From IMG/VR virus record IMGVR_UViG_3300029243_000160, positions 1-64,000 of that record: 64,000 bases of DNA, one strand, 5' to 3'. The position numbers and the translations under genes were made by a program. This document shows, in pieces, positions 25,208-39,551 of this stretch; within the stretch, counting starts at the first letter, position 1; each line of letters starts with the position of its first letter. The notes beneath the pieces were generated by a model. That model saw nothing but the letters and a program-made list of their open reading frames with translations. It had not been told where the DNA came from and did not search any database. Source of the stretch: a virus.

Positions 25208-25242
25208 TTTGAGGGGAGATGCAGTAAAACTACTGCACTTCT

Positions 25243-25271
25243 ATTATATTTGTTTTCCACTGGCACGTCAA
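25243..25271 (-). promoter_or_regulatory. sigma-A promoter TTGACG-17-TATAAT for the rusA operon
   Basis: The gene strand reads TTGACGtgccagtggaaaacaaaTATAAT. Confidence 0.6.
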
Positions 25272-25377
25272 TCACTGTCGAAAATTATTCTGACAGCGTT
25301 CACAATTTTCAGAGCCATGCACAAACCATGTGCTGTGATGTTGGCTACAGTGTACAAAATGCAAGGCTGTTGTATAG

Positions 25378-25402
25378 GGTACAGGTATAGCAAGGTATAC
25401 CT
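25378..25402. repeat. 23-nt repeat copy 1 containing AGGTATA-GCAAGG-TATACCT (7-6-7 inverted repeat)
   Basis: ggtacaggtatagcaaggtatac is identical to 62394-62416. Lies 35 nt beyond the recombinase stop codon. Confidence 0.6.
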
Positions 25403-25436
25403 ACATATCCGTTTGTTTTAATCTGGTTGAATCAGA

Positions 25437-26486
25437 TTATCCAATGCTGACTTGTAAATCGTATTCGTCTTTTATGTTCATGACTTCACGAATTGACTGC
25501 ATATGCAAGTTGTCTTTTATCTCTTTTGGCTTCGTACCGTTTTCAAGTTCAGATACAATAAACGCCTTGCGAATCGTCTTTGTAGTAATGCCTTTTGGAA
25601 GTCCGCATACTCTTGTGATGTTGCGAATTGTACTGTGTACACTCTGCATTGTCAATGGATTTCCGTATGAGTTCAGGAACAGCAGTCGGTCATTTTCTTC
25701 TCTGCATTCCGGCAGTCTTCCAATTTCAATTTGCGATTCAATCCATGACACACACTGGTCGGAAAGCGGATATTTTTTCTTATCTATTGTGGCTGTCTTT
25801 TCTTCCAGATTGATGTCTTTTGCTTTCATTGTATTGATGTCTTGGAAGCGGAATCCTGTCAGCATTGTAAAGATGGCAACCAATTCATTTACGCCATACT
25901 TCACACAGTCTTCTGCAATGCAAAACGAAAGCAAAGATTCCAGCTCTTTCGGTGACATGATGTAGGCTGTTGATACAGTTCCGGCTGCTGGAACTGTCTT
26001 TCTGATGTCTGACAAATTGAATTGACAAGTGATACCTGCTTCTTTCGCAAGTGTGAATGTTTTCTTCAACACATCTGTGATTTTATCAATGTTCACCTGC
26101 TCAAATTTCAGAACAATCGTGTTATAAAATTTCTGCATATCTTCTTGTGTAATTTCATCAATATTTTTATCTATTGGAGAATCGAAAACAGCGTTGTCAA
26201 ATAGCGTTGTCAGTTTTTTGATAGTTGGTATTGCCTCTTGTGTAACAGCACACTTAAAATAAAAACGCACATAGTCTGAAAGCTTTTTCCCAACTGGTCT
26301 ATATGTTTCCAAAACCGCAGTACGTTCAGCCTCTGCTGCTGCAATTTTTTCTTTCAGTTCACCTTCGGTAGCAGCATAAATGCGTTTGGATTTTCCAAAA
26401 AAGTCCTTGTCCAAATCATATACATAGTATTCTCGTGAGCCAGTGAAAACCTTGCGGATTTCTTTTGTTCCTCTACGCATATCCAT
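25437..26486 (-). CDS. tyrosine site-specific recombinase/integrase (divergent)
   Basis: Box I (AIFTMLTGFRFQDINTMKAKDI) and C-terminal TIRKAF...LHMQSIREVMNIKDEY. Start set to MDMRRG (SD AGGAGAG). Confidence 0.65.
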   Translation of the reverse strand: MDMRRGTKEIRKVFTGSREYYVYDLDKDFFGKSKRIYAATEGELKEKIAAAEAERTAVLETYRPVGKKLSDYVRFYFKCAVTQEAIPTIKKLTTLFDNAVFDSPIDKNIDEITQEDMQKFYNTIVLKFEQVNIDKITDVLKKTFTLAKEAGITCQFNLSDIRKTVPAAGTVSTAYIMSPKELESLLSFCIAEDCVKYGVNELVAIFTMLTGFRFQDINTMKAKDINLEEKTATIDKKKYPLSDQCVSWIESQIEIGRLPECREENDRLLFLNSYGNPLTMQSVHSTIRNITRVCGLPKGITTKTIRKAFIVSELENGTKPKEIKDNLHMQSIREVMNIKDEYDLQVSIG

Positions 26487-26514
26487 CTCTCCTATCATAA
26501 ATTCGTTCAGTGCT

Positions 26515-26543
26515 ATTATACAAGATGTCAAACATTTTTTCAA
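26515..26543 (-). promoter_or_regulatory. promoter TTGAAA-17-TATAAT for the recombinase gene
   Basis: The gene strand reads TTGAAAaaatgtttgacatcttgTATAAT. Confidence 0.5.
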
Positions 26544-26612
26544 TTCCTAAAATTCAAAACATAAAATAAAAGTGACCGTTATGAAACACAACAGCCACTT
26601 TATATTTTTCAT

Positions 26613-27224
26613 TTATCCGTTATTTTGTTCTGTAATCAATTCTAGTTCTGTAGTATCAGAGGCAAGGAAAAAGATGTATTTATCCTGCAAACAATACAGC
26701 TTGTAATGTACACCTTTCGCCGTCTGGTCGAAGAAGCAATTTACCTGTTGCTTGCTGACATAAAAGTTTGCAGATGATTTCTGCTCATCAGTGAAATGAT
26801 ATATCGTAGAGGGCTTTTCGTCAGATGCTTTTTTCTCTTTGCTGATTTCATCAAGCAAGAACAAATGCTTTGAAGTGCGAATGCCTGAGCCTGCCTGAAT
26901 TGCCTGTTCTAACTTCTTCGCAGTATTGCTCACATGAAGCAACATTGTAATGACAACGATGCCAATGTATATCATACACAGAAAGCAAAACGGCAAAATA
27001 TTTTTCAAGCTTTCCAGAGAAATTTTTCCGCAAAAAGCGAACATCACAAGCGAAAAAACAACTGCAAATCCAATAGCGATTCCAATTTTGATGCAGGCAA
27101 CTTTATGCGTTCCTGCTCTCTCTTTGTCCATAAATTCCTGCAATGCTTCGATGTCTTTTATGTCGGGCGTAGCTGTACAATACAGCTTCAATTCTTTTAC
27201 AGTCATCGCAAAATTCCTTTCCAA
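26613..27224 (-). CDS. membrane protein
   Basis: 203-aa ORF with two central TM helices. Confidence 0.45.
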   Translation of the reverse strand: MERNFAMTVKELKLYCTATPDIKDIEALQEFMDKERAGTHKVACIKIGIAIGFAVVFSLVMFAFCGKISLESLKNILPFCFLCMIYIGIVVITMLLHVSNTAKKLEQAIQAGSGIRTSKHLFLLDEISKEKKASDEKPSTIYHFTDEQKSSANFYVSKQQVNCFFDQTAKGVHYKLYCLQDKYIFFLASDTTELELITEQNNG

Positions 27225-27236
27225 AAACGAGCTGGA

Positions 27237-28823
27237 TTATGCTCCTTTTTTGTTCCAACCAACGACTGACACTTCACTCTTTTCCTCTTCTTTTTTCTCC
27301 TTTTCCTCTGCCTTTTTCTTTGCAGAAAGAGCTTGCAGAAAGTCAAGAATCTCTGCTTTGTTGTCTGCAAAAACCTCGTTCAAAAGTTTTACTGCACCCT
27401 CGCACTCTCTGGAAGTCTGCACAGAAATTATATCTTTTTCTCTGCCGAAAAATGTGTAGTTCTCTGGGTTCTTGTAGTAATTGACGACCTCAGAAGATAC
27501 CCGAACCATCTTCGGTGTCAGAGGGTCAGCAATGAACATTTTGTCTGCTGCCTTGCATCGGGAAAGAGCAACATAGAGCTGTCCGTCCTGAAAGATTTCC
27601 GGCTTGAAATTCATTGCGTCATAAGTCTGTCCCTGTGCTTTGTGAACTGTGATTGCAAATCCCAGCTTCATCGGAAACTGCTCTACACTTCCTACAGTCA
27701 CAAGCTCCAGTTCCTTATGCTTCTTGATGATTGCCTCTCCACGCTCATCTTTCAGTTCTTCAATGATTTCTTTCTCTCTGTATTCGTACTTGTTGAAGTC
27801 ATGCCGTTCTACACAAACCAGATGTTTTTCTGGTTTTCCTGTGGCGATTTCAATTCGCTCCACTTCAACATAAATTTCATCACCTGAGATTTTTTTGATT
27901 GTTCCCATGCTGCCGTTCTGATAATCTCCAGACGGTTCATTTATCAGCATGATTACTCTTGCTCCTACCTTGCACTGGAAAGAATCTTCACACAGTCCGT
28001 CACTGGCGGTCGCTATCCCTGTATAGATGGCAGGAAAACTGTATTCCTTCTTCTTGATTTTGTCCAACCGTTCCTGATTCCGAAGTCTGGCTGTAACATT
28101 CTTTCCGCATACCCAAATTGCATCTTTCTGCTCTTTTGCTGCTGTATTTTTTGCAAAGAACGGAAGGCAATCCGTATCGCCTTCTTTGCACTGGTCAAGT
28201 GCTGTGCAGAACGCTTTGTCTCCGTCCTGCCGTTTTACTTCGGTCAGCTTTTCAAACTGAATCCGGAGTGACTGCCAATACTTTGACTGGAACGCAAATC
28301 CGTTTCCGATATTCTTGCCGTAGTACAAGTCCAGCATCTTTTTATCCAGCGGAGGAATTACCGGAGCAAGCTGATAAAAGTCCCCTACCAGAATAATCTG
28401 AATGTCCGGTCGCTTCTGTGCCTTGCGTTCCCGATTGATAAGGTCAATGTATTTCATCACTTTATCGAACACGTCAATCCGCACCATACTGATTTCGTCA
28501 ATGAGCAGAACACTTGCCAGATTCAGAATCTGCATCACTTCTGTCGGAACATTTCTCACGTCAGCAAGCATACTTTTAACATCAGTTTTCAGCTTGAACA
28601 GTCGGTGTAAAGTCACGCCCTGAATGTTGCAGGCGGCAATGCCAGTCGGTGCAGCTTTCAGAATTTTCACATCATTCTGCTTACAATACTGGTCGAATGC
28701 CTTTACCAAAAACGACTTACCTGTTCCGGCGTTTCCGGTCAGAAAAATATTCTCACCGTTTACCATTCGGGAGAAGATTCGCTTCTGCTCTGCCCCAAGC
28801 TTGCTGATATAATCTTCACTCAT
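27237..28823 (-). CDS. PIF1/RecD-like superfamily-1 DNA helicase
   Basis: Walker A (LTGNAGTGKSF), LLIDEISMV, VGDFYQLAPV, ITVHKAQGQTYD and LYVALSRCK. Start at MSEDYI. The C-terminus ends GWNKKGA. Confidence 0.8.
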   Translation of the reverse strand: MSEDYISKLGAEQKRIFSRMVNGENIFLTGNAGTGKSFLVKAFDQYCKQNDVKILKAAPTGIAACNIQGVTLHRLFKLKTDVKSMLADVRNVPTEVMQILNLASVLLIDEISMVRIDVFDKVMKYIDLINRERKAQKRPDIQIILVGDFYQLAPVIPPLDKKMLDLYYGKNIGNGFAFQSKYWQSLRIQFEKLTEVKRQDGDKAFCTALDQCKEGDTDCLPFFAKNTAAKEQKDAIWVCGKNVTARLRNQERLDKIKKKEYSFPAIYTGIATASDGLCEDSFQCKVGARVIMLINEPSGDYQNGSMGTIKKISGDEIYVEVERIEIATGKPEKHLVCVERHDFNKYEYREKEIIEELKDERGEAIIKKHKELELVTVGSVEQFPMKLGFAITVHKAQGQTYDAMNFKPEIFQDGQLYVALSRCKAADKMFIADPLTPKMVRVSSEVVNYYKNPENYTFFGREKDIISVQTSRECEGAVKLLNEVFADNKAEILDFLQALSAKKKAEEKEKKEEEKSEVSVVGWNKKGA

Positions 28824-28918
28824 AAATGAATCACTCTTTCTTTCAAAATAAAAAAGCCCCACAGGGCTTCTCTGAGCCTCTGTAAGGCTTTCTCGGAATC
28901 ACTCGTCTGTTGTATCGG

Positions 28919-29308
28919 CTATTCCTTTTCGGCTCGTTCTGAGCCGTCCTGAGCGTCTGTAGACGCTTTCAAATCCTTTGTGCTGATAATTACTGATGGC
29001 AGAGCATCAAACGCTTTCATAATCTCAATTGGCTGTCTCTCTTCTGGGATAATCTCACAGATGCGGTACACGCTTTCCATGAATTTATCTCTGTAGAGTG
29101 TCTTGTTGATGTAAACACTGCTGTCATTCAGATAAGCATTCACAATCTCTTCGATGACATTAGTTGTGATGTCGGTGGGATTCCGCTTTCCTGTGATGTA
29201 GCAGGCAAGCGTGTTTTGTGGAATTTTGGTCAATGCAGAAAGTTCACGATAACTAAGTCCGGATTTCTTCCAAGCATCACGAACTCTCTCGGAATTTATC
29301 TTCTGCAA
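28919..29308 (-). CDS. XRE-type HTH DNA-binding protein
   Basis: The N-terminus (AWKKSGLSYRELSALTKIPQNTLACYITGKRNP) is a classic HTH_3 pattern. Confidence 0.6.
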   Translation of the reverse strand: MQKINSERVRDAWKKSGLSYRELSALTKIPQNTLACYITGKRNPTDITTNVIEEIVNAYLNDSSVYINKTLYRDKFMESVYRICEIIPEERQPIEIMKAFDALPSVIISTKDLKASTDAQDGSERAEKE

Positions 29309-29551
29309 TTACTTCCCCTTTCCGGCAAGCTCTGCATCGCTGATAGCATGGTCTGCCTCATAAATAATGTTGTACAGCAGATTCATCGGACTGATGCCGT
29401 AAATGTTTGTTGTGATGGACACGATTTTTGCGTGTGCATCTTTCAGCGAATCAACCGTATGATTCACAGTGGATTCAATCCTGCCAATATCATTTGTAGA
29501 ATTGAATACCACAACTTTCAAGTATCTTGAACGATAGTTTTTGTTTTCCAT
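29309..29551 (-). CDS. hypothetical protein
   Basis: 80-aa ORF abutting the HTH gene. Weak resemblance to Cse60-type small proteins; not relied on. Confidence 0.4.
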   Translation of the reverse strand: MENKNYRSRYLKVVVFNSTNDIGRIESTVNHTVDSLKDAHAKIVSITTNIYGISPMNLLYNIIYEADHAISDAELAGKGK

Positions 29552-29589
29552 TTTATATCTCCTTTTTTATTTTTCACATACGTTCAGGG

Positions 29590-29856
29590 AATGTACTTAC
29601 ATCTTGCAGATGCCTGCACGGATTTTGTGTGCAGAGTTTCCTGTTGCCATGAGCAACATACCTCACCCTTACATCTTGCACTTACGCACGAGCTGCAACA
29701 GCAAAGATGTACATATTTACAAGATGCCTGCACGGATTTTATGTGCAGGATTTCAAACTGCATCTTGCAGTTTACCTTACCGAGAGTGTCTGCTACTCTC
29801 CGAAAAGAGAATTACGCATACTGGTTTCGATTCAAGGACGCTAAGTCGCCCTGATT
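29590..29856 (-). ncRNA. orphan second copy of the Cas12f-like scaffold RNA, with one degenerate repeat (29661-29699) and a partial third hairpin copy (29614-29634)
   Basis: 29700-29856 aligns along its length with 31294-31450, with compensatory changes in two hairpins. The strand is inferred from the nuclease-linked copy. Confidence 0.5.
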
Positions 29857-30061
29857 GCAAAGTATCAATAAAAGCATCAATACATTAGTCATCTGAACAG
29901 GAGTTGCACCTGTTAAATTGCTACCAATCAGACGATAAGTAATCCGGAATCACAGCACCGTGGAACTGCTGTCCGAATTACAATAACCCAACACAAAAAC
30001 GCAAAATCACGGAAATACTCACATTCTGCCACGGTGATTCAATCGTGTATGAAAAGATTGA

Positions 30062-30123
30062 AGCCAACAACAGGAATCGAACCTGTATCTCTCTGTAATG
30101 CTCTGCCATTGAGCTATGTCGGC
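30062..30123 (-). ncRNA. tRNA-like element lacking an anticodon arm
   Basis: GCCGACA acceptor, TAGCTCAATGGCAGAGC D-arm and ACAGGTTCGATTCCTGT T-arm, but only 13 nt where the anticodon arm and variable loop should be. No CCA. Confidence 0.5.
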
Positions 30124-30186
30124 ATCTCAGAACGTCCAAGTATCTGCCTGAACGTCCTGTGTGATTGCTTGTGTTATTCTCTGTGC

Positions 30187-30990
30187 TTATGCACCACGTC
30201 TGCCCCAACCAGAGCCGGACTGTCCGTTGCTGTTGCCATTGCTCCAGCCGGAAGCATTCTGTCTCTGCTGTGCAGGCTGTGCTGCCTGAGCAGGTCGTGA
30301 ACCCCATGTGCCACCAGTGGCAGCAGGTCTCTGCTGTGCGGACTGTGCCGGAGCTGCCGTCTGTGCAGGCTGCTGTCTCGGCTGACTGCCAGCGGTTCTG
30401 TAATTGGTCGGCTCACTTGCCTGCTGGTCAGGGTCGTCACCTGTAGAGATTTTGTACATCTTCATCAGAGCATACTTATCGCCGTATGTCATTGCCTTGC
30501 CAGAACCCTTGTCCTGTGCATCAATTCCCTCAGAGAACACTGTTGTTTCAATGAAGTCTGTCGGCTCGTCTACATTGACAAAACGATACACAGTCTTCAC
30601 TCTCGTCATGAAAGTGGACTTCTTTGTCACCTTGCCCTGATATTCATTCTCAGATTCCAGAATGTGACTTTCCAGAATCTCACGGCTTACCGGATAGCTG
30701 TACACACCGTACTCAACTTCCAACGGTTTTACCGCATCAATAATGTCACGCTCAGAAACTGCTCTGTAACTGTTTCTGCCACCAGTGCTGACAGTCAGAT
30801 TCTTTGCCACGACTGCAAGAGCATTCTCTACAGCCAGAAGTCTCTGAAAAATATTCATCGGCTTAGTGGTCTTTGTCTGCTTTCTCGCAGGCTTCTTTTC
30901 CTCTGGAGCAGATGCGGTTTCCTTTTTCGCTTCTTCCATTGTAACTACCTTGTTTTCGTCTTCGCATTTCGCTTCAAAATTTCCGTTCAT
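30187..30990 (-). CDS. ERF-family single-strand annealing protein
   Basis: YRAVSERDIIDAVKPLEVEYG and GSGKAMTYGDKYALMKMYKISTGDDPD match the ERF core. Q/A/G/P-rich tail ends GWGRRGA. Confidence 0.7.
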   Translation of the reverse strand: MNGNFEAKCEDENKVVTMEEAKKETASAPEEKKPARKQTKTTKPMNIFQRLLAVENALAVVAKNLTVSTGGRNSYRAVSERDIIDAVKPLEVEYGVYSYPVSREILESHILESENEYQGKVTKKSTFMTRVKTVYRFVNVDEPTDFIETTVFSEGIDAQDKGSGKAMTYGDKYALMKMYKISTGDDPDQQASEPTNYRTAGSQPRQQPAQTAAPAQSAQQRPAATGGTWGSRPAQAAQPAQQRQNASGWSNGNSNGQSGSGWGRRGA

Positions 30991-31054
30991 AGTGAATACT
31001 CCTTTTTTATTTTTTTGATTTTGTGCTTTGTAGATTAACTACCTTACATTAACT

Positions 31055-31083
31055 ATTATAGCACGGTAGTGTACAAATGTCAA
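31055..31083 (-). promoter_or_regulatory. class-P consensus promoter copy 4 (drives the ERF gene)
   Basis: TTGACAtttgtacactaccgtgcTATAAT. Confidence 0.7.
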
Positions 31084-31141
31084 GCATATATATCAATTTA
31101 CTCTGTAAATTATTCGTTATTAAATAAAATAAATAAACAAT

Positions 31142-31293
31142 GCCTATACGCAGATTGCAACGCTTCACGTTTTCAATGCAGTGATACACCAAGACCTCAC
31201 ATCTTACGCCTATACGCAGATTGCAACTGTGAACGATGTGTTGTAATTACATACCCTAAACCTCACATCTTACGCCTATACGCAGATTGCAAC
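31142..31293 (-). CRISPR. mini CRISPR array: 3 repeats (33 nt, distal one truncated to 20 nt) and 2 unique 33-nt spacers
   Basis: Repeats are at 31261-31293 and 31195-31227 (identical) and 31142-31161. Spacers are at 31228-31260 and 31162-31194. The gene-strand repeat is GTTGCAATCTGCGTATAGGCGTAAGATGTGAGG. Confidence 0.7.
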
Positions 31294-31496
31294 AGCAAAG
31301 ATGTACAAAACTATAAGATGCCTGCACGGATTTTGTGTGCAGGATTTCAAACTGTTCATACACAGTTTACCTTACCGAGAGTATCTACCACTTTCCGAGG
31401 AAAGAATTACGCATACTGTCTCGATTCAAGGACAATGAGTTGCCCTGATTTAGTGCGAACGTCTCAGTTATTCTGTGGGAACTTCCGGTTCGCACT
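31294..31496 (-). ncRNA. tracrRNA/omegaRNA-like scaffold between the nuclease ORF end and the first repeat
   Basis: Hairpins: 31321-31343, 31349-31368 and 31391-31404, plus a 9-bp stem (31452-31460/31488-31496) spanning the stop codon. Anti-repeat segments are AAGATGT (31299-31305) and TAAGATG (31314-31320). Confidence 0.55.
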
Positions 31497-32781
31497 GCAT
31501 TTTTAATGTTTCTTCGATAATAACATCTATATGTTTCGTGCCAATATTCTGGCTCGCATTGTAATCAGCATTTTCTTCATAGCCACATTTCTGGCAGCAG
31601 AATCTCGCCTGTACAGGTCTGTTGTCAGTATGAATGTAACCGCATTTATTGCAACGCTGACTGGTAAACTTCGGGTTGATGTAAACTACCTTGATACCAG
31701 CTTCTTTTGCCTTGCTTTCGATTTTTGTCTGCAAGTCAAAGTACGACCATTCTTTCAGAAAATATTCTGCATTGCTTGTGATGCCTGTCAGCTTTTCCAT
31801 TTGAATCGTACCGCAACCGTTTTTGATTGCATAATCAATCAAGGCTCTGCTGTACTTGTGATTCGTGGTATCACGGAATCTGGCAATTTTATCAGCAATC
31901 TGTGCAGCTGGTTCTGTACGTTTCTTTCTGCCGTGTCCGATACGTCCGTCACCGCAATAGCGTGACTGATTCAAGAGTGAGCGTCTTCTCGCTTCTACAC
32001 GGCTTCGGAAAGCTTCAATTTCACCGCCCTTGATGCTGAATCTGGCGTAATCACCATTGACAGATGCCATGATAGGATAAACGACACCAAGGTCAACGCC
32101 CATGATTTTTTCAGTGTCAAGCGTAGAAATGACATGGTTATCAAAAGAATAGCAAAGGTTCAGTTTCCACAGCTTTTTCTTCTTGTCATACATCAGCTTG
32201 CTTGCACTGACTTTGTATTCATCGTTCATCAACCGTTCCAGAATTGTCCGGACAGACTTATCTCTTACCTGCATACGGAAACGCAGGTCATCTTTGATGC
32301 CGTATTTTTCTTTTCCAGCACGATTCAGCATTTTCAGTGCAACAAAAAAGTTGCCGTTTTCATAGGAAAGCTTAATTGCTTTGTTGTGAATATCCAAAGG
32401 CTGATTTGCCTTAAAAGAGAGTACAGACCGTTCCCCTTTCAGCATTTCCTTTTTGTAATTGCTGAATGCAGTACAGGTGTCTCTGGAAGATGTGGAGAGA
32501 TTGGAAGAATACAGGTCGTTTCCGTTTTTGATACGGTCGTAAACGAATCCGCTTAACGTATATCCAAGAGTATCTTTCTCCTTCGGATATTCTTCTGACT
32601 TTTTGTAGTAGTCGCTGGAGAAGTTCAGCCACTCCCAGCAGAGCTGTACGCATTTGTTCTTGATGTCTCGTGTCTGCCTCTGCAAGTTCCACAGCAATTC
32701 GCTGATTTTCTTAAAATCAATCTTATTGCCGTCCTTGTCGATTTGCTCGCTAATCAGATAGACCTTTGTTACTTTGGTCAT
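31468..32781 (-). CDS. Cas12f-like / TnpB-family RNA-guided RuvC endonuclease (about 437 aa)
   Basis: RuvC-I (MGVDLGVVYP), RuvC-II (GTIQMEKLTG), zinc finger (CNKCG...CQKCG), RuvC-III (ENADYNASQNI) and a GHGRKKR lid-like motif. ATG 32781 has SD AAAGGTGA; an alternative GTG lies at 32790. Confidence 0.85.
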   Translation of the reverse strand: MTKVTKVYLISEQIDKDGNKIDFKKISELLWNLQRQTRDIKNKCVQLCWEWLNFSSDYYKKSEEYPKEKDTLGYTLSGFVYDRIKNGNDLYSSNLSTSSRDTCTAFSNYKKEMLKGERSVLSFKANQPLDIHNKAIKLSYENGNFFVALKMLNRAGKEKYGIKDDLRFRMQVRDKSVRTILERLMNDEYKVSASKLMYDKKKKLWKLNLCYSFDNHVISTLDTEKIMGVDLGVVYPIMASVNGDYARFSIKGGEIEAFRSRVEARRRSLLNQSRYCGDGRIGHGRKKRTEPAAQIADKIARFRDTTNHKYSRALIDYAIKNGCGTIQMEKLTGITSNAEYFLKEWSYFDLQTKIESKAKEAGIKVVYINPKFTSQRCNKCGYIHTDNRPVQARFCCQKCGYEENADYNASQNIGTKHIDVIIEETLKMQCEPEVPTE

Positions 32782-32786
32782 AAATA

Positions 32787-33641
32787 TCACCTTTTATCCA
32801 GAATATCGTATATTTGATTTTTCGATTTTTTATATTTCTTTGAGATTGCTTCAAGAGCAATGATTGCAACCACCGTGTCTGCAATCAAAAGAGTTGCCAA
32901 TAAGAATACCGCTGGCAGAATAAATGGATTCTCTCTGGAGCGAACTAAGACCATGATGTCAGATACAGCAAATAAGCAGAATGCGATTGTCAGAATCAGT
33001 CCGGTGAATATACCACAGCGAATGTACTTGCCCTGTTTGCGTTTGGCACTGCGACCGATTCTCTTGTAAATGCTCTTATCTTCCATCGTGTTAGAATACC
33101 AGCTTAACAGATAGAGTTCTGGTTCAGATAGTGTGAAATCAATTTTCCGAAAGTCATAGCTTTCAATATTTCTGCCGAAGCAAAAGTTGATAAATGCAGT
33201 AATAACATTCAGATTCATCTCTGTCATGTCGAAATAGTTTATGAATGTGATGTAGTCCTCTCGGCTTGCATCACCACCTACAGCTCTGCGTGAGCTTGCC
33301 GGAACTTGCTCAATCAGTGCAGTCAGCACTTTCAAAATAGAAATTGTGCAGTATTCATCAAGCACCTGCTGCCAGTCGAACAAGTCGCATAAGTCGCACA
33401 AAAGCTTTACTCTGACTTTCTGTTCAACAGGCGGTTTCTGCATTATTCTATGAATTTCAGCCAGTACAAAGCGAATTTCTTCCGCAAATTCACCTGCCGT
33501 CCGAATATCTTTGGTATACACATGATTGCTGTAATGCAGATAGCCACAATTGCCACACCAATATCCTTTGATATATTTGTCTGGTGCATCAACTGTTGTT
33601 CCGCACTTATCGCAAATCAGTCTGCCGTCTGCAAGATTCAA
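32787..33641 (-). CDS. zinc-ribbon protein with two C-terminal TM helices, coupled to the nuclease gene
   Basis: The N-terminus has CDKCG...CGNCG. The C-terminus has TM helices GIFTGLILTIAFCLFAV and LPAVFLLATLLIADTVVAIIAL. The stop lies 5 nt before the nuclease ATG. Confidence 0.55.
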   Translation of the reverse strand: MNLADGRLICDKCGTTVDAPDKYIKGYWCGNCGYLHYSNHVYTKDIRTAGEFAEEIRFVLAEIHRIMQKPPVEQKVRVKLLCDLCDLFDWQQVLDEYCTISILKVLTALIEQVPASSRRAVGGDASREDYITFINYFDMTEMNLNVITAFINFCFGRNIESYDFRKIDFTLSEPELYLLSWYSNTMEDKSIYKRIGRSAKRKQGKYIRCGIFTGLILTIAFCLFAVSDIMVLVRSRENPFILPAVFLLATLLIADTVVAIIALEAISKKYKKSKNQIYDILDKR

Positions 33642-33829
33642 TCTGCATCACTCTTTTCAGGAGCAGGCTCTGTCGCCTCTCCTTCGTCTTCTTTTTTGGT
33701 GCAGTGAAATCTGCTGCGTTCCAGTTCCATTGCTTTTTCAAAGCCGTCTGCCTTGCCATTCTGATAGCCGTACCACACCGCACCGACCAGCATTGCGGTC
33801 ACTACAGTAAACTTGATGAATTTTTTCAT
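33638..33829 (-). CDS. small single-TM protein
   Basis: 63-aa ORF with 4-nt overlaps on both sides. Confidence 0.45.
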   Translation of the reverse strand: MKKFIKFTVVTAMLVGAVWYGYQNGKADGFEKAMELERSRFHCTKKEDEGEATEPAPEKSDAD

Positions 33830-34083
33830 TCTTCCTCAGCTCCCTCGGATTCAGTCTCCGCTTCTTCTGCATCGTCTTCGTCTGTGCCGTTTTCGTACTC
33901 ATCAATGGTTGCACGGTAGACTGCCTTTGCTGCTTCAAAATTTGTCTTCACGCTTCCAGCCCCAGTTGAAACACCGTCCTGCACCTTCTGATACGCTTCC
34001 AAACCTCTTTTACTAAGTAAAACACAGGAAAGAATTACGCCGATAAAAAAGCCAACAACTCCTGACGCTAAATATCCTAACAT
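33826..34083 (-). CDS. YtxH-like small membrane-anchored protein with acidic tail
   Basis: N-terminal TM helix, then an A/K-rich helix, then a D/E tail. Confidence 0.45.
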   Translation of the reverse strand: MLGYLASGVVGFFIGVILSCVLLSKRGLEAYQKVQDGVSTGAGSVKTNFEAAKAVYRATIDEYENGTDEDDAEEAETESEGAEEE

Positions 34084-34143
34084 GATTTATTCTCCTTTAC
34101 TCTGCTGTTTATTCGTTATTGTTAATCAAAAAAATATGATGAT

Positions 34144-34764
34144 TTAATCATCGCACTTATCATACTGTTCCTTCTGATACTTGGGCTTCTGATAATGCTT
34201 CCCATAAGATTTCTTGCCGTGGTCTGCTTTTCCAGCCCCATGATAATTTTTACCGTTCTGCTTCTTCCAAGTAGAATTTTTATCGTCCAGCGAAAGCCTT
34301 GTCGCATCAAACATCTGTATATGAGCATGGTCAGCAATTTCTTCCTGCTTTACGCCAAGCTCTTTCATATAAGCATTTTCGATTTCCCAGAACAAGTCCT
34401 TTGCATTCTTCATCAGAACGAACGCATCTGCCTTTGACACACACTTGTCGCCATACCGCAGTCCATTGAACGCTGACAGCGTTTGTGCATTATCTGCAAT
34501 AAACATATGCTCCTGAATGAAGTTAGGCGAAACACGCTCTGCCTGAAACAAAAGATGTTCCATGTTGTGAGCGTACATCGTTTCCTGTGGCGGCGGTTCA
34601 ACAGATTTCTCACTGATAATTGCCTTGATGCTTTTTTCGATTGCCTGAGCAAAGTGATACGCAGCCATGTTTACCATTATCGGATTGTCTTTCTGCTGCA
34701 TTGCAGTTCCGGCAATCATAATGTCTGCTCGAATCACTTCCAGTTCTTTTGCACTTACTGCCAT
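34144..34764 (-). CDS. HEPN-domain protein
   Basis: AAYHFAQAIEKSIKAII...YAHNMEHLL...LRYGD matches the HEPN helix pattern with an R-x-x-x-x-H-like element. K/H-rich tail. Confidence 0.55.
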   Translation of the reverse strand: MAVSAKELEVIRADIMIAGTAMQQKDNPIMVNMAAYHFAQAIEKSIKAIISEKSVEPPPQETMYAHNMEHLLFQAERVSPNFIQEHMFIADNAQTLSAFNGLRYGDKCVSKADAFVLMKNAKDLFWEIENAYMKELGVKQEEIADHAHIQMFDATRLSLDDKNSTWKKQNGKNYHGAGKADHGKKSYGKHYQKPKYQKEQYDKCDD

Positions 34765-35184
34765 TTAACTTCTCTCCTTGTCGTAAATTGCATACACACG
34801 ACCTGCTCTGAGTTCTCCTAAGAGTTCTTTTTGCAAGCCATGAATCACGTTCTCGCCTTCCACAAAATCTTTGTCATAATCGTATACCACATCATTGTAG
34901 ATGATTTCAAAGATTTCATTGTGGAGCAGGATTCTTTCATATGTTCCCTTTGGAATGTCAGAACGAACCAGAATCTGCGGATTTCCCTCTTCATACTGTA
35001 ATCCAGAAAGATACCAGATACCTGTTACATTCTTTGGATTCAGTGCGTGAGGGTCATTCTCTTTCCGATTCAAAATAGTCTGCTGGAGCTTCTGAAAGCG
35101 TCCTGCAAGCTTTTCTCCAACTGCCCCCTTTGAAAAGAATGGTACAGTCAGTAATCTCTTTTCTGCATCTGTCATGTTTCCCAT
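34765..35184 (-). CDS. hypothetical protein abutting the HEPN gene
   Basis: 139-aa ORF whose stop codon immediately precedes the HEPN ATG. No nucleotidyltransferase motif seen. Confidence 0.5.
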   Translation of the reverse strand: MGNMTDAEKRLLTVPFFSKGAVGEKLAGRFQKLQQTILNRKENDPHALNPKNVTGIWYLSGLQYEEGNPQILVRSDIPKGTYERILLHNEIFEIIYNDVVYDYDKDFVEGENVIHGLQKELLGELRAGRVYAIYDKERS

Positions 35185-35190
35185 AAATCA

Positions 35191-35346
35191 TCACTCCTTA
35201 TTTTCTTTCTCGTTATCTGATTTTTGCAAGCGTTCCGGACAGCGTTTCTGAATAAAATGCTGTTTTCCGATTTTCAGCCACCATATCAAAATACCGCCTA
35301 CGATTACAAACAGTATAGCACACACGATTATGATTATCCTATCCAT
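35191..35346 (-). CDS. small single-TM peptide (51 aa)
   Basis: Below the ORF-track cutoff. MDRIIIIVCAILFVIVGGILIWWL followed by a basic tail. Confidence 0.35.
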   Translation of the reverse strand: MDRIIIIVCAILFVIVGGILIWWLKIGKQHFIQKRCPERLQKSDNEKENKE

Positions 35347-35364
35347 AACGCATTCCTCTTTTCA

Positions 35365-36087
35365 TCAATTCTGTTCTTCAAAGAAACCGTTCCACAAGCC
35401 AACCTTTTGCTCTGCTGCCGTATGTGCCAGTTCTGCAAAGTGGTCTGCGTGTTTCACGTTTGGTGGATAAGTGGCAGTATTGGCATACCCATTCTCCAGC
35501 AACCAGTCCTGAACCATTGTACCGTCTTCAAAGTACACATAAGCTAATGTTCTGCCATACTTGTCCGTAGGACTAACATCATACTCCACATATACAGTAT
35601 CAATATCCTGAAACTTCTCTTTGACTATCTGAGAAACTTCTTTTCCTTCTTCCGTATTCTCTGTACGATAATCTGACGGAGCAACGCTTTCCGGCGTATC
35701 TACGCCAATCAAGCGAACTTTTTGTTTTTCACCGCTGATTTCCAATTCGTATGTATCACCGTCTATCACACGAATCACAGTAGCCTGCTCTAAAGAAAGT
35801 TCGTCTGAACCGCTGGGAATTTCGCTGGATTGGTCTCCAGCTTCTTCCTTTGCGTACTCTTCTCGAATTTCTTTGTGCAGTTCATCTTTGTTTTCATCAT
35901 ACGCTTGATATGCTGTCTTTATATCATCTATCGGCAAGTCTTTCACGATTGCCTTAGAGCCAAATTTCACAGCATCTTTCAGCGGAGACAGAAAACAAGC
36001 TCCGCAAATCAAAACCGATACGCCAAGAGTAATCAGCACAGCACTTTCTTTTTGATTTCTTGTCCATTTTCGTTTTTTCTTTGCCAT
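35365..36087 (-). CDS. membrane-anchored thermonuclease (SNase family)
   Basis: VIDGDTYEL...VRLIGVDTPES...YGRTLAYVY...GYA...H...A-KVGLW. N-terminal TM anchor. Confidence 0.85.
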   Translation of the reverse strand: MAKKKRKWTRNQKESAVLITLGVSVLICGACFLSPLKDAVKFGSKAIVKDLPIDDIKTAYQAYDENKDELHKEIREEYAKEEAGDQSSEIPSGSDELSLEQATVIRVIDGDTYELEISGEKQKVRLIGVDTPESVAPSDYRTENTEEGKEVSQIVKEKFQDIDTVYVEYDVSPTDKYGRTLAYVYFEDGTMVQDWLLENGYANTATYPPNVKHADHFAELAHTAAEQKVGLWNGFFEEQN

Positions 36088-36126
36088 AGTACACCTCTTT
36101 CACATCTTTCGATGTGACCATTCTCT

Positions 36127-36624
36127 TTAAGCGATGTAAAATTCCTTCGCTAATACTTCTCCTTTGTATCTTCTGTTTCTGCCTGTTTCTTCGTCTTTCT
36201 CCCAGAATTGTCTGTAAAAGCGATAAATCATGGGATTCTCTTTATCCTGCATTGCAACGCCGTAGTTGTAATTTGTGATTTTTCTTGCACACAGAATTGC
36301 CAGCAGGCTTTCGTTTTTATCGCACCCATCATCAAACCGTCTTATAAAGCTCATATCGCCAATCCCAGCCAAGATAAGCAATCCGTTCAGTGAAATGTCG
36401 CATACACGACAGGCAACCTTGCTTTTATAAGCGTTATAGAAATAAGAGCAAAACATCAAAACATATTCCGAATTGCTCTTGATGCGAATGCTTTCATTGT
36501 CATCTGAAATTGTATAATCAGTCAGATTGGTATACGTTCCTTTTTCGTTTCTCATATACACCGTTATATCACTGAACGCATATCTTGAAAGCCACGTCTT
36601 ATCTGTTTTGTCCACGAGATTCAC
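36127..36624 (-). CDS. hypothetical protein
   Basis: 165-aa ORF. Its SD AGGAAGTGA lies 19 nt after the CCA end of the tRNA-like element. Confidence 0.45.
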   Translation of the reverse strand: MNLVDKTDKTWLSRYAFSDITVYMRNEKGTYTNLTDYTISDDNESIRIKSNSEYVLMFCSYFYNAYKSKVACRVCDISLNGLLILAGIGDMSFIRRFDDGCDKNESLLAILCARKITNYNYGVAMQDKENPMIYRFYRQFWEKDEETGRNRRYKGEVLAKEFYIA

Positions 36625-36640
36625 TTCCTATAATTTTGTA

Positions 36641-36707
36641 TGGTGGCAGGAGCAGGATTTGAACCTGCGTAAACTCTCATTGAGTGTTGTAATACCATAT
36701 TTCTGCC
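36641..36707 (-). ncRNA. tRNA-like element (acceptor + T-arm + encoded CCA; no proper D-arm; 5-nt loop on the anticodon-like hairpin)
   Basis: 3' end is GCAGGTTCAAATCCTGC-TCCTGCC-A-CCA. The 5' GGCAGAA pairs 6/7. The internal hairpin is ACTC-AATGA-GAGT. Confidence 0.5.
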
Positions 36708-36755
36708 GTTTCTCTGTGAATATACACTGGACTTTTGTGAACTTCTGCTGACATG

Positions 36756-36798
36756 AAAAAAAGGCAACATACAGGGCTTTGGGTGCTTGCGTGTTGCC
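36756..36798 (-). terminator. intrinsic terminator between the two tRNA-like elements
   Basis: The gene strand reads GGCAACA...UGUUGCC followed by U7. Confidence 0.5.
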
Positions 36799-36844
36799 CT
36801 CTTTCCATAAGGGTTTTGATGTATGAGGTTTTCATTGAGAATGT

Positions 36845-36904
36845 TGGTCGAGAAAAGCGGAATCGAACCGCTTTGCAGTACATCACTGCTATTCCTTATC
36901 CCCG
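36845..36904 (-). ncRNA. tRNA-like element (acceptor + T-arm + encoded CCA; D-arm absent)
   Basis: AGCGGTTCGATTCCGCT T-arm and TTTCTCG-A-CCA. The 5' CGGGGAT pairs 6/7 with wobbles. The internal hairpin is GCAGT-GATGT-ACTGC. Confidence 0.45.
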
Positions 36905-36968
36905 ATATTCGCCCCCTCACGAAGAGGGAGCATATTTACAGGAGGACTGTCAAATCAGTCGGTGCTGT

Positions 36969-37289
36969 TTAGTTGTTTCTGACACGCTTTGCTACCTTAG
37001 TTGCAAAGATTGTCATGGTCGGAATCTTATCGCCGTTCTTGTTGGTGTAGTCACCTACGGAGAATCTGCCCCAAACGTCTACAAAAGACTTAGCGTAGTC
37101 GTCCTGAACAATGTCGCACTGGTTGTCGCCTACGATGCTGCAAACAACATCAATGTAAATCGGTGCGGTATACTCGCCGTCATCGCCCTTACGATTCATC
37201 GAACACTTCAAGATAACACTCTTTTCTGTCATCTTCTGCTCGTAGCATCTCAGTCCCCAGTTTTCGCAAATGTTAAAATTGTTAGCCAT
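36969..37289 (-). CDS. SSB-like OB-fold protein (short, no acidic tail)
   Basis: VDVWGRFSVGDYTNKNGDKIPTMTIFATKV resembles the SSB beta4-beta5 pattern. First gene after promoter P5. Confidence 0.45.
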   Translation of the reverse strand: MANNFNICENWGLRCYEQKMTEKSVILKCSMNRKGDDGEYTAPIYIDVVCSIVGDNQCDIVQDDYAKSFVDVWGRFSVGDYTNKNGDKIPTMTIFATKVAKRVRNN

Positions 37290-37369
37290 AATTACGCTCC
37301 TTTTTCAAAATATATTCCTGTGGCTACCGTAAGGCTTTGAACTGTTGTTCTCTGTACCTTACATTAACT

Positions 37370-37398
37370 ATTATAGCACTTTTATGGTGCGTTGTCAA
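37370..37398 (-). promoter_or_regulatory. class-P promoter copy 5 (spacer diverged; TTGACA-17-TATAAT retained)
   Basis: The gene strand reads TTGACAacgcaccataaaagtgcTATAAT, with the same leader and upstream ATAACGGATA motif. Confidence 0.6.
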
Positions 37399-37467
37399 TA
37401 GGAAAATAGGGTTTAATCTGTAAAATATCCGTTATTTATTTTGTTGAAACTTGTATATTTTAACGAA

Positions 37468-37701
37468 TCAACCGTGAATCAAGCACTTCTCATCGAGCTT
37501 ACAAGTGTGTTGCATTTCCTCTTTGAGAGCATCTTCAAACGATTTTGTGCTTTTTATATCTTCATCTGCGTAAATCTGTTTTACCAGTTTTACGATTGAA
37601 CTTGTATCTTTATGAATGTATCTTTTGCAAAACCGATGCCATTGGGAATTTGTCATACGGCTGTCCTTTTTGAATAAAAGAACCAGTTCCTTTCCTGTCA
37701 T
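37468..37701 (-). CDS. hypothetical protein
   Basis: 77-aa ORF. Confidence 0.4.
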   Translation of the reverse strand: MTGKELVLLFKKDSRMTNSQWHRFCKRYIHKDTSSIVKLVKQIYADEDIKSTKSFEDALKEEMQHTCKLDEKCLIHG

Positions 37702-37736
37702 CGTGGTTCACTCCTTTTTTCTCTTACCTGATATTT

Positions 37737-38975
37737 TTATTCTTTGTTGTTCTTTTTCTTAATGATGTAGCACACTCCTGCGATTATCAATACAATCAAG
37801 ATGCCACCGCCAATAAAAATGATTCGGTATTTCATCTGACTTTTTCGCAGTTCTTCTTTTTCTTTCTTTGACACAATTACAGATTCTTCTGGAATCTCTG
37901 TTGTTCCTGTTGCTGTTTTAGCTGTTGTTTCTCCAGTTTTACTGTTGCTGGAAAAATCCTTGTCAGAGCTTTCAGAAGGCAGCTCGGCTGTGTCTGTTGT
38001 ATTTTCTTTCGATTGCTCAGAATCGTAGTCCAGCTTAACCTTTCCGTTCTCATAGTCGTTCAAGCTAATATTGTTTCTGTTGTTCCACGAGAAGTCCGGT
38101 TTGTCAGATAAATCTATCGGCATGATGTCATATTTCTCTGTGAGTTTTGAAATGTCAAGCTGATATGGTTCATCAATCGTATTTTCCAGTTGCACCTGTA
38201 CATTGTTATCGTAGACCAATGTGTTTTCGCCCTCTTGAACGTCCTGCGTGTTGACAGTTCTCACATAATAACCGCCTGCTCTTACCTTTACAAGGAATGG
38301 TTCGTTCGCTTTCACATAGAACACATGATAAGTCCAATCGTTTCTATACTCCAGCTTTACCATAACATTTACTGGAGAATAAATCTCCAGAAAGCCTGTT
38401 TCACTCCACCAGTCCGGAATGTTATCATTGATTTCATATACAACAGTCTCTTTCCTGTCGTAATTGTCCCACACTGCATAATTCAGCACAACCGATGAAT
38501 CAATCAATTCTAATTCTGTTTCGATAGAAAAAGAACCGTCCTTTTTCATTTCTGAAATTGCATTGTCATATGTTTCCTTGTTGAGATACACTCTGTACTT
38601 TGTCCAGTACACTTCATTGTCCCTGTCCATATATCGGCTCAAAAAAGAATTGAACTCCTTCTGGAGCAGGTCATAATTTTCATCTGATATATCTTTGCTA
38701 TCAGTTGTAACAAGAACATATCCGGCACTTCTCAAATACTTTTCCAACGCTTCGCAGTCATTTCTTGTTGTGCATTGAATACCATTCAGTTCATTTACGC
38801 CGCCTGTCAAAATCTGATTACCGCTTAAAGAATGATAATACTTCAAGTTGTCAGGGTCAAATTCTTCGATGAATGTATCTTTCAGCTGTTCTTTTGCATG
38901 AACAGTTATTGTTGACATGGAAACACACATCGCAACCATAACGGCAGCAGCCAGTAGCCTTTTTCCAATCTTCAT
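37737..38975 (-). CDS. surface protein (signal peptide + C-terminal TM anchor)
   Basis: N-terminal LLAAAVMVAMCVSMSTITVHA. C-terminal IIFIGGGILIVLIIAGVCYII followed by KKKNNKE. Confidence 0.55.
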   Translation of the reverse strand: MKIGKRLLAAAVMVAMCVSMSTITVHAKEQLKDTFIEEFDPDNLKYYHSLSGNQILTGGVNELNGIQCTTRNDCEALEKYLRSAGYVLVTTDSKDISDENYDLLQKEFNSFLSRYMDRDNEVYWTKYRVYLNKETYDNAISEMKKDGSFSIETELELIDSSVVLNYAVWDNYDRKETVVYEINDNIPDWWSETGFLEIYSPVNVMVKLEYRNDWTYHVFYVKANEPFLVKVRAGGYYVRTVNTQDVQEGENTLVYDNNVQVQLENTIDEPYQLDISKLTEKYDIMPIDLSDKPDFSWNNRNNISLNDYENGKVKLDYDSEQSKENTTDTAELPSESSDKDFSSNSKTGETTAKTATGTTEIPEESVIVSKKEKEELRKSQMKYRIIFIGGGILIVLIIAGVCYIIKKKNNKE

Positions 38976-39535
38976 TTGCTATTCCTTCCATTTTCTATCT
39001 GCTTTTTTGCAAGTGCATGATAGCGGTCACTTTCCAAAAGCATAGCATTATATGCTTTTATTTTTTTCAAGCAACGATTTCTGGTAGTCCGTTGTTTTCC
39101 TTCGGTTCTGCGAACAAAGCATTCCATCTGAGCCATCATGTCATAGCGATTATAGAGAATTTCCAAAATTACGTTGATGTCGCCTTCATCGTATTTGTAC
39201 AAGTAAATCTCATTGTCACCATATACGCCGATATAAATATGACGATTTTTCAGAAGGCTAACCAGCTTGTACTTTCGTAAAACCTCTTCTGTTGCCGAAG
39301 CCTCAGCTTCTTCGAGTGTTCTGCACCCAAGAACGTGCCGGAAGACACACCAAATAATATAAAGTGCAGTCTGCCTTTTGCGTTCTGCACTTGTTAGCTG
39401 TTCTTGCTCAGACTTTTCCTCTTCATCGCTGATGTGGATTTTTTCCATACAAAATCGACCACTACATTTTGCAAACCCCTTTGCGTATGTATACAGTAAA
39501 TTGCAGTCAAGTTCATCTAAGTAACCCCAATCCAT
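38972..39535 (-). CDS. hypothetical protein
   Basis: 187-aa ORF with a 4-nt overlap to the downstream gene. Confidence 0.45.
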   Translation of the reverse strand: MDWGYLDELDCNLLYTYAKGFAKCSGRFCMEKIHISDEEEKSEQEQLTSAERKRQTALYIIWCVFRHVLGCRTLEEAEASATEEVLRKYKLVSLLKNRHIYIGVYGDNEIYLYKYDEGDINVILEILYNRYDMMAQMECFVRRTEGKQRTTRNRCLKKIKAYNAMLLESDRYHALAKKQIENGRNSK

Positions 39536-39551
39536 TCGTACCTTCCTTTCG

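Follow-up and report, generated by a model that had tools for sequence, protein, structure and literature searches.

The 64,000-nucleotide (nt) stretch of DNA analyzed here, positions 1 to 64,000 of the IMG/VR virus record IMGVR_UViG_3300029243_000160 (hereafter, the window), carries on its minus strand a gene for a small RuvC nuclease of the Cas12f1 family, a scaffold resembling a trans-activating CRISPR RNA (tracrRNA) that overlaps the 3' end of this gene, and a short repeat-spacer array that abuts the scaffold. The parts of this locus, in window coordinates, are as follows.

31468..32781 (-): cas12f1 gene, 437 aa from the ATG at 32781; stop codon TAA at 31468-31470
31517..31544 (-): candidate internal promoter inside the cas12f 3' end, TTGGCA-16-TATTAT with a TG, from a consensus scan
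31294..31497 (-): tracrRNA-like scaffold, supported by RNAalifold, single-sequence folding, and homology to the OsCas12f1 and Ob3Cas12f1 tracrRNAs
31294..31322 (-): anti-repeat, GGCATCTTATAGTTTTGTACATCTTTGCT on the gene strand, abutting repeat 1 and pairing with the 3' two-thirds of the repeat
31262..31293 (-): repeat 1, GTTGCAATCTGCGTATAGGCGTAAGATGTGAG, 32 nt
31228..31261 (-): spacer 1, GTTTAGGGTATGTAATTACAACACATCGTTCACA, 34 nt, unique in the window and found in many sister arrays
31196..31227 (-): repeat 2, 32 nt, identical to repeat 1
31162..31195 (-): spacer 2, GTCTTGGTGTATCACTGCATTGAAAACGTGAAGC, 34 nt, matching the HxDE...PHxH-coding region of a foreign MobV relaxase gene
31142..31161 (-): terminal repeat, truncated to its first 20 nt, followed by an A/T-rich trailer

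A longer start is available in the open reading frame (ORF) listing, a GTG at 32790 (31468..32790(-), 440 aa), but the ATG at 32781, with AAGGTGA upstream, is more plausibly the start codon. A first-pass annotation of the window, made from its sequence, had described a nuclease ORF of ~437 aa with RuvC motifs and a zinc finger. The translation, which contains GVDLGV, IQMEKL, ENADYNASQNI, IGHGRKKR, and CNKCG...CQKCG, agrees with that description, as does the alignment to AsCas12f1: the RuvC D/E/D and the CxxC...CxxC zinc-finger residues are intact and aligned with those of the active AsCas12f1, the first RuvC aspartate being pinpointed by the D-to-A mutant structure 8DZJ. At 437 aa, with a C-terminal tri-split RuvC and a TNB zinc finger, the protein has the size (~400-500 aa) and domain makeup of a V-F1 effector. 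Searches of PDB sequences with phmmer recovered AsCas12f1 (8J12/7WJU/8DZJ) as the top match (E=1e-117, residues 23-430, ~55% identity), along with a 433-aa chain of OsCas12f size (9nzq; E=1.7e-108) and remoter Cas12f proteins (SpCas12f1-size chains and Un1Cas12f1/Cas14a; E=1e-36 to 1e-69). In contrast, LaTranC (9jfo/9jfq) was matched at only E~1e-5 and solely in the C-terminal RuvC/zinc-finger region, and a 384-aa chain labeled "Transposase" (8iaz) likewise at only E~1e-5. Among profiles, the best scores came from the PADLOC models for Cas12f (2.2e-134) and Cas12u3 (3.5e-129), followed by the generic guided_TnpB subfamily model of NCBIfam (2.6e-56) and Pfam Cas12f1-like_TNB (1.4e-21); the NCBIfam IS200_TnpB model (NF038281) gave 57.7 bits (1e-15), against its cutoff of 425. 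We recovered 657 homologues at E<1e-20, chiefly from gut and rumen Clostridia, and the protein is 98-100% conserved over hundreds of cluster members. Judged by its sequence, it is a bona fide, catalytically intact Cas12f1 of the AsCas12f/OsCas12f (V-U3) clade.

The noncoding part of the scaffold measures 174 nt (31294-31467), in line with the ~170 nt of hairpin-rich noncoding DNA abutting the repeats that had been noted at first pass. The stop codon had also been placed inside a stem, correctly so; its borders are refined here to GTGCGAAC (31453-31460) pairing with GTTCGCAC (31489-31496), and this stem 1 around the stop codon is kept in every relative examined. RNAalifold, applied to seven homologous loci, predicted 57 pairs, with compensatory changes at 29, and the single-sequence fold has a z score of -3.3 against shuffles. 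The consensus order is stem 1, two internal stems, a further stem-loop that not all loci have but the window does, a CTGCAC-N9-GTGCAG hairpin, and a tripartite anti-repeat:repeat duplex. The pairing columns of this duplex (185-193/234-242, 198-203/226-231, and 207-210/218-221) covary. Segment CATCTTATA of the scaffold pairs with (C)GTAAGATG, and the pairing changes in concert among relatives (CATCTTA/TAAGATG in the window, CGTTAC/GTAATG in locus L002, and CGACTTA/TAAGTTG in L003), which bears out the anti-repeat behavior proposed earlier. The conserved cores of the scaffold align with the OsCas12f1 tracrRNA, which has been validated in editing, so at the sequence level a long tracrRNA with an anti-repeat lies between cas12f and the array, as in V-F1 systems. 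The candidate promoter at 31544-31517 could start a tracrRNA/pre-CRISPR RNA (pre-crRNA) transcript a short way upstream of stem 1. The same order of cas12f, scaffold, and array, with 4-7 repeats, is seen in chromosomal relatives whose proteins are 58-69% identical (L003-L007, L029, L031-L033), and the 2.5-6 kb of flanking sequence read there showed no cas1/cas2. Because these relatives and OsCas12f1/AsCas12f1 share the layout, the abutment of scaffold and repeat 1 is a feature of the clade and not a locus-specific fusion of an omegaRNA to an array. By its covarying fold and its homology, the scaffold is an ordinary Cas12f tracrRNA.

The borders of repeats and spacers were set by comparison with sister arrays. 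Two identical repeats and a third keeping 20 nt had been described at first pass, and these stand; the lengths of 33 nt given for both repeats and spacers do not, the repeats being 32 nt and the spacers 34 nt long. A truncated terminal repeat followed by a trailer is common to all sister arrays. A degenerate repeat pattern run over the whole 64 kb found the array copies and one further copy at 29671-29699, in a second module termed locus B (see below), with 0 expected by chance. The closest documented repeat is that of OsCas12f1, GTTGCAACCCGCGTATGGGCGCGGCTTGAAGG, ~21/32 identical by direct reading; this repeat, its tracrRNA, and the PAM (protospacer-adjacent motif) TTTC come from the supplement of PMC10090079. 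The window thus has the adjacent array with variable spacers that is typical of V-F1 (two full repeats and one truncated repeat), and no self-target was found in the window or in any fetched locus. Directly past the array trailer, at 31055-31083 (-), lies a perfect sigma-70 consensus promoter (TTGACA-17-TATAAT, upstream TG) facing the ERF gene (30187-30990).

We compared this array with those of ~35 metagenomic copies of the same element. The sister arrays hold 1-8 spacers and fall into three repeat-variant lineages with at least 19 distinct spacers in all. All 10 spacers restricted to one copy or sub-lineage are tracr-proximal, upstream of the shared spacers, and spacers on the trailer side are variably lost; this pattern is the signature of polarized acquisition and deletion. 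The third element lineage (L043-L045 and L048, including Hadza samples) has the variant repeat GTTGCAATCTGCGTACAGGTATAAGATGTGAG and different spacers, and L043, its sole copy with a readable interval, is without locus B. Alleles of spacer 2 (S2) at the same array position (L009/L016 and L011/L012 versus the window) differ at positions 7, 16, and 22, which fall on third codon positions in the targeted MobV gene and mirror natural target alleles; S7 alleles differ at positions 7, 10, 16, and 25, with the same period of three. The idea that spacer alleles always differ by synonymous third-position changes was dropped as a general rule, since two S4 differences fall on first codon positions; the rule holds for S2 and is possible for S7. 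Repeated acquisition of a favored protospacer, array recombination, or conversion could each account for the S2 pattern.

As the S2 alleles differ at intervals in multiples of three, we made the search pattern degenerate at those positions. A scan of Joint Genome Institute (JGI) metagenomes then returned two nonarray matches for spacer 2: one on contig L026 identical over 34/34 positions (5' flank CTTC), and one on L024 with three wobble differences (positions 4, 7, and 16), with GGCTTC directly 5' of the protospacer in both. Translated, the site reads ...LHVFNAVIHQDEATPHLH..., which is the HxDE...PHxH motif of a Mob_Pre/MobV relaxase; a Rep_OBD replication gene adjoins it. L024 is a 5,440-bp circle (55-nt terminal overlap) with genes for Rep, Mob, and a resolvase-like protein plus one small ORF. 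The homologous site in the element's own MobV gene (61881-61914 (-)) has a TTTC flank and 12/34 mismatches to spacer 2, 5 of them within the first 15 positions, and so divergence, not absence of a PAM, is what spares the element's own relaxase. In IMG/VR, scans with spacers beyond spacer 2 led to one element (L051/L052/L053/L054, on contigs of 13-36 kb) with protospacers for seven spacers within 5 kb, as listed here for L051/L052.

S5: 0 mismatches, Rep (REP_ORF2-G2P)
S6: 0 mismatches, Rep (REP_ORF2-G2P)
S14: 0 mismatches, large serine recombinase
S4: 3 mismatches, resolvase
S18: 6 mismatches, resolvase
S2: 5 mismatches, MobV
B1 (from a locus-B array): 4 mismatches, large serine recombinase

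The 5' flanks of the seven are CTTC, ATTC, TTTC, TTTC, TTTC, TTTT, and TTCC. TTC thus stands immediately 5' in 5/7 (P~1e-7, from the trinucleotide frequency), a 5' T-/C-rich PAM as expected of V-F1 systems. From the Mob, Rep, resolvase, and recombinase protospacers, we conclude that the system is aimed at small mobilizable plasmids or integrative mobilizable elements. Other searches came back empty: three presumed spacers had no blastn match in plasmid collections or in 50,697 GenBank phage records; IMG/VR held no protospacer for spacer 1, spacer 2 (wobble-degenerate pattern), S7, S11, or S15, and its scan with S4 returned only the element's own arrays. GTDB genomes yielded nothing for spacer 1 or spacer 2, and hence none of the species representatives carries the element with these spacers.

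The window codes for a VirB4-like ATPase (CD1110 family, 2.9e-194) and a VirD4-like coupling protein (CD1115 family, 2e-95), a MobV relaxase, ParA/ParB, and a tyrosine recombinase (integrase), as well as RecD- and Pif1-type helicases, methyltransferases, and the ERF recombinase. The cas12f locus is fixed and single copy, between a 284-aa ORF and the ERF gene, in >30 contigs, and copies of this element lie on no fewer than 35 metagenome contigs, of which many span 200-340 kb. Neighboring proteins have exact or near-exact copies on >1000 human-gut metagenome contigs, and the NCBI records carrying them name Coprococcus sp. AF38-1 and Ruminococcus callidus. The carrier, a conjugative element of human-gut Clostridia, is very widespread. 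It is catalogued in IMG/VR as a virus (e.g., L028, IMGVR_UViG_3300029704_000248, 131 kb), a label against which its gene content (type IV secretion system [T4SS], MobV, and ParAB) argues. Many of the element-bearing contigs (L008-L023 and L034-L039) measure 201-207 kb, which suggests a discrete replicon of ~205 kb, and others measure 0.5-1.5 Mb, which suggests integration into, or co-assembly with, a chromosome. Positions 24000-40000 of the window had no megablast match in GenBank phages or PLSDB. The "Hodor" gut megaplasmids (PMC12934698) were considered as the identity of the element and set aside, since they exceed 300 kb and carry a type I-C system, and we found no evidence of sameness. 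A match to the type-P5 twister ribozyme lies at 20032-20101 (-) (Rfam, 54.8 bits versus a gathering score of 37.6).

The first-pass annotation had also held that cas1, cas2, and cas4 are missing from the 64 kb. Insofar as this concerns Cas1, it stands, no Cas1-like match being among the matches listed for the 78 window ORFs (PADLOC and NCBIfam); for Cas2, a weak match is not formally excluded. The V-U3 trait of a locus without cas1/cas2/cas4 is accordingly seen within the 64-kb window of an ~200-kb element and within 6 kb of the chromosomal relatives. The matches listed for the window ORFs include no transposase, and transposon left and right ends (LE/RE) were not specifically searched for.

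We interpret the locus, with a probability of roughly 0.8, as a functional, adaptation-less type V-F1 (V-U3 clade) CRISPR-Cas12f system that is cargo of a conjugative element of human-gut Clostridia and most likely serves in conflict between mobile elements. Its basis is the protein family, the homology and covariation of the scaffold, the array polymorphism, the protospacer matches with their PAM, and the lack of self-targets. A minimal type V-F-like system acting against competing plasmids was one of two readings offered at first pass, and the Cas12f1 family, the T4SS context, and the Mob/Rep/recombinase protospacers with TTC now favor it; together, the T4SS, MobV, and ParAB context and the protospacers give the picture of a CRISPR system borne by a mobile genetic element (MGE) with spacers matching other plasmids or mobilizable elements.

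We infer the following course of events, from transcription to benefit. The cas12f gene would be translated from the ATG at 32781, and a tracrRNA of ~200 nt would begin at the stem spanning its stop codon and run gapless into the array, being either transcribed from the candidate promoter at 31544-31517 or processed out of the cas12f mRNA. Because the tracrRNA runs straight into the array, its anti-repeat would pair with repeat 1 in cis, giving the first guide, and with subsequent repeats in trans. As the homologues AsCas12f1 and OsCas12f1 lead us to expect, an asymmetric Cas12f dimer would load one tracrRNA:crRNA, read a 5'-TTC PAM, and form an R-loop, whereupon RuvC would cut both DNA strands. 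The guides would hit essential backbone genes (those for the MobV relaxase, the rolling-circle-replication [RCR]-type Rep, the resolvase, and the large serine recombinase), and small mobilizable elements, possibly parasites of the element's own T4SS transfer machinery, would be excluded or destroyed in element-bearing cells, a form of inter-MGE competition. New spacers presumably arrive via host Cas1-Cas2 acting in trans, as MGE-borne systems are thought to borrow them (PMC9071438); as an idea only, spacers may instead be updated without Cas1-Cas2, e.g., through annealing-mediated conversion by the adjacent ERF recombinase.

A second tracr-plus-array module, locus B, lies at 29596-29862 (-), between the ERF gene and an 80-aa ORF, and comprises, with the sequence following it, the parts listed here.

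29700..29862 (-): tracr-B, an orphan second tracrRNA copy, 82-88% identical to the scaffold beside cas12f (tracr-A), with compensatory stem changes and without stem 1
29668..29699 (-): repeat B, GTTGCAGCTCGTGCGTAAGTGCAAGATGTAAG, coevolved with the tracr-B anti-repeat (CATCTTGTA / GCAAGATG)
29596..29667 (-): diverged tandem copy of the tracr 3' half, from alignment and sequence comparison
29552..29595 (-): sequence in "guide" position after the fused repeat tail, TACATTCCCTGAACGTATGTG..., which is also the 5' untranslated region and ribosome-binding site of the 80-aa gene (29309-29551)

In the tandem copy, the stem TGTTGC/GCAACA replaces ACTGCA/TGCAGT and is followed by a hairpin, CTGCACACAAAATCCGTGCAG, and then by the anti-repeat GCATCT, which runs straight into GCAAGATGTAAG, the 12 nt that end repeat B; the fusion junction is predicted to fold as a 6-bp stem with a triloop. 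The segment GGTGAGGTATGTTGCTCATGGCAACAGGAAACT, at first taken for a spacer, was rejected as such, since it aligns as part of the diverged tracr 3' half, with which the deletion variants L015/L017 agree. The "guide"-position sequence has no further match in the window beyond chance, and the region differs among copies, including by an indel. A 14-nt match with two mismatches to the reverse complement of spacer 1, which would have made array A (the array beside cas12f) the target of a fixed guide, was likewise rejected, ~0.4 such matches being expected and 3 seen.

Among 25 sister loci with a readable interval, tracr-B is present in 24 and locus B is wholly absent from one. Genuine arrays of 1-3 spacers, one of them B1, occur in 8 and fusions resembling a single-guide RNA (sgRNA) in 16; seven have been cut down to one scaffold plus the fusion, via at least two different deletions. 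The structural variants thus range from real arrays through two kinds of 114-nt deletion to complete absence. We regard locus B as a second guide-supplying module for the same single nuclease, to which it would deliver additional guides. That it is a hard-wired natural sgRNA gene for Cas12f, with a fixed guide in the manner of an omegaRNA and born by recombination within a tracr-plus-array cassette and kept in about two-thirds of the copies of the element, with the linked notion of spacers updated without Cas1-Cas2, strikes us as an unlikely though not negligible proposition. Such an sgRNA might control either Cas12f itself or the 80-aa/HTH operon beside it; the fusion may also be a mere by-product of recombination. 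Directly downstream, at 28919-29551 (-), the 80-aa ORF is followed by an HTH_3 protein in a layout that resembles anti-CRISPR/anti-CRISPR-associated (Aca) operons, and the 80-aa protein is found on >1000 contigs. On the other side, between locus B and the ERF gene, lies a tRNA-like element (30062-30123 (-); Rfam tRNA, 50.4 bits; no ARAGORN tRNA call; anticodon arm seemingly shortened), which all sister loci retain and which may serve as a processing signal or be what is left of an attachment site.

Several points weigh against the interpretation of the locus as a working system directed at mobile elements. No cas1/cas2 that could supply new spacers was seen among the matches listed for the window, and no target of spacer 1 was found in phages, plasmids, IMG/VR, or GTDB genomes. 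The PAM is based on seven protospacers, two of which deviate (TTT and TCC). The contigs targeted by several spacers come from IMG/VR, where they are labeled viral, their mobilizable nature being read from the gene content of ~14 kb of each. Moreover, some Cas12f orthologues perform poorly at 37 C in heterologous hosts (PMC8548392).

Three other accounts of the locus were weighed. The viral label of the contigs with the most protospacers (L051-L054) would fit an ordinary host-protective antiviral defense riding on the element, with phages as its main targets, and defense cargo is common on integrative and conjugative elements. The label is nevertheless weak evidence, because the conjugative element itself is mislabeled in IMG/VR as an uncultivated virus genome (UViG). 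Moreover, the targets are MobV, resolvase, RCR-type Rep, and serine recombinase genes, and the 14 kb that were read showed no phage structural gene; spacer 2 has its exact target on Rep-plus-Mob contigs and an allelic copy of it on the 5.4-kb circle; and the GenBank phage records returned no spacer match. We therefore hold a primarily antiviral role to be improbable. Somewhat less probable still is a decaying or noncleaving remnant, in the form of an inert mini-array or of a Cas12f that serves as an RNA-guided binder or repressor (e.g., of mobilization genes). The two spacers and truncated terminal repeat of the window copy, the adaptation genes not found among the matches listed for the 64-kb window, and the structural instability of locus B would suit such a remnant, and plasmid-borne V-M and IV-A systems do act by repression (PMC11656645). 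Decay is, however, hard to square with the intact catalytic and zinc-finger residues, aligned with those of an active enzyme, or with near-complete conservation of the protein across the cluster; it fits no better with compensatory evolution in the tracr stems, polarized array turnover, and several spacers perfectly matched beside a PAM.

The reading of the locus as an IS200/IS605 TnpB with its omegaRNA, or as a TranC-like intermediate between TnpB and Cas12 with a nascent array, is largely refuted, and we consider it very improbable; the intermediate had been the other reading offered at first pass. It could draw on the score of the generic guided_TnpB model (2.6e-56), on a scaffold that overlaps the 3' end of the gene and runs into the first repeat as an omegaRNA runs into its guide, and on the scaffold-to-guide fusions in locus B. 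Yet the Cas12f and Cas12u3 profiles score at ~1e-130, versus 1e-15, far below the model cutoff, for IS200_TnpB, and the ~55% identity to AsCas12f1 stands against a mere 1e-5 for LaTranC and 8iaz. With respect to LaTranC effectors, this relationship is moreover confined to the C-terminal part of the protein and falls short of membership in TranC. The gene keeps a single-copy, syntenic position in >30 contigs with no transposase beside it, and the arrays hold up to eight spacers that match foreign DNA with a PAM. The architecture is common to established V-U3 loci, i.e., to the chromosomal relatives with 4-7 repeats and to those described in PMC7229846, and its tracrRNA is of the ordinary kind; the array is not nascent, because sister copies carry 1-8 spacers. 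The locus, then, has every testable feature of V-F1/V-U3 and lacks the defining features of IS-borne TnpB and of TranC.

Compared with characterized systems, the CRISPR-Cas12f locus of the window is closest to AsCas12f1 (Acidibacillus sulfuroxidans) and OsCas12f1 (Oscillibacter sp.), both of type V-F1, formerly V-U3, with a protein of 437 aa versus 422 and 433 aa, homology over the full length (E=1e-117 and 1e-108), and the order cas12f, long tracrRNA, and array, with no cas1/2/4 (PMC7229846 and PMC8548392); AsCas12f1 has a tracrRNA of 169 nt encoded between gene and array (PMC8548392). The window shares with OsCas12f1 a 32-nt repeat starting GTTGCAA, a tracr core with AATCGAGACAGTA, ACTCTCGG.AAGGT, and the hairpin TGCAC...AATCCGTGCA, and a T-rich PAM ending in TTC (TTTC for OsCas12f1), that of the window being derived from natural protospacers. 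It differs in a protein identity of only ~55%, with activity being predicted here, in the extra stem-loop AACTGTGTATGAACAGTT of its tracr, in its location on a conjugative element and not a chromosome, and in its second tracr-plus-array module. Like plasmid-borne IV-A3 and V-M, which act in competition among plasmids (PMC9071438 and PMC11656645), it sits on a conjugative element without an adaptation module and has a short array with spacers against backbone, transfer, or replication genes; unlike them, its targets found here are small mobilizable elements and not large conjugative plasmids. Because the effector retains an intact RuvC, cleavage would be expected and not transcriptional silencing as in IV-A3/V-M. 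Its scaffold resembles the omegaRNA of TnpB (IS200/IS605) in overlapping the 3' end of the nuclease gene and continuing into a guide-bearing segment, but its guides are drawn from a repeat-spacer array and their foreign protospacers are flanked by a PAM, no TnpA is listed, and the protein is a Cas12f1.

As to locus B, its anti-repeat continues in cis into the 3' portion of the repeat, with a fixed sequence thereafter, as in the natural sgRNA tracr-L of Streptococcus pyogenes Cas9 described in PMC10120712 (citing Workman et al. 2021). It is unlike tracr-L in that no target or regulatory site was found for its "guide" and the guide region is variable; its function is putative. Of the repeat, precisely the final 12 nt are retained at the junction, which is how the engineered OsCas12f1 sgRNA is built (tracr-GAAA-last 12 nt of the direct repeat).

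Some of this was already known: type V-U3 loci without adaptation genes have been described, mostly from Clostridia and Bacilli (PMC7229846), an enrichment of V-F among plasmids has been reported (Pinilla-Redondo et al., NAR 2022; PMC9071438), and plasmid CRISPRs often are without cas1/2 and target other plasmids (PMC9071438; Koonin and Makarova 2024, PMC11656645). What is new is the identity and prevalence of the carrier, the family of targets with a natural PAM, the duplicated tracr-array module with its sgRNA-like fusions, and the spacer alleles that mirror target alleles. Current concepts are unchanged by these findings, and we regard their importance as moderate. They provide practical material in the form of a 437-aa Cas12f1 orthologue from a 37 C habitat with its tracrRNA, 32-nt repeat, inferred TTC PAM, and natural sgRNA junction, and the polarized turnover of spacers without local cas1/cas2 offers a tractable system for V-U3 spacer acquisition. 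If the locus-B fusion were indeed a natural sgRNA, it would represent a natural CRISPR RNA architecture reverting toward the TnpB state. The locus is also a well-documented natural case of plasmid-borne V-F systems in the wars between mobile elements, in which the targeted small elements could be parasites of the carrier's transfer machinery.

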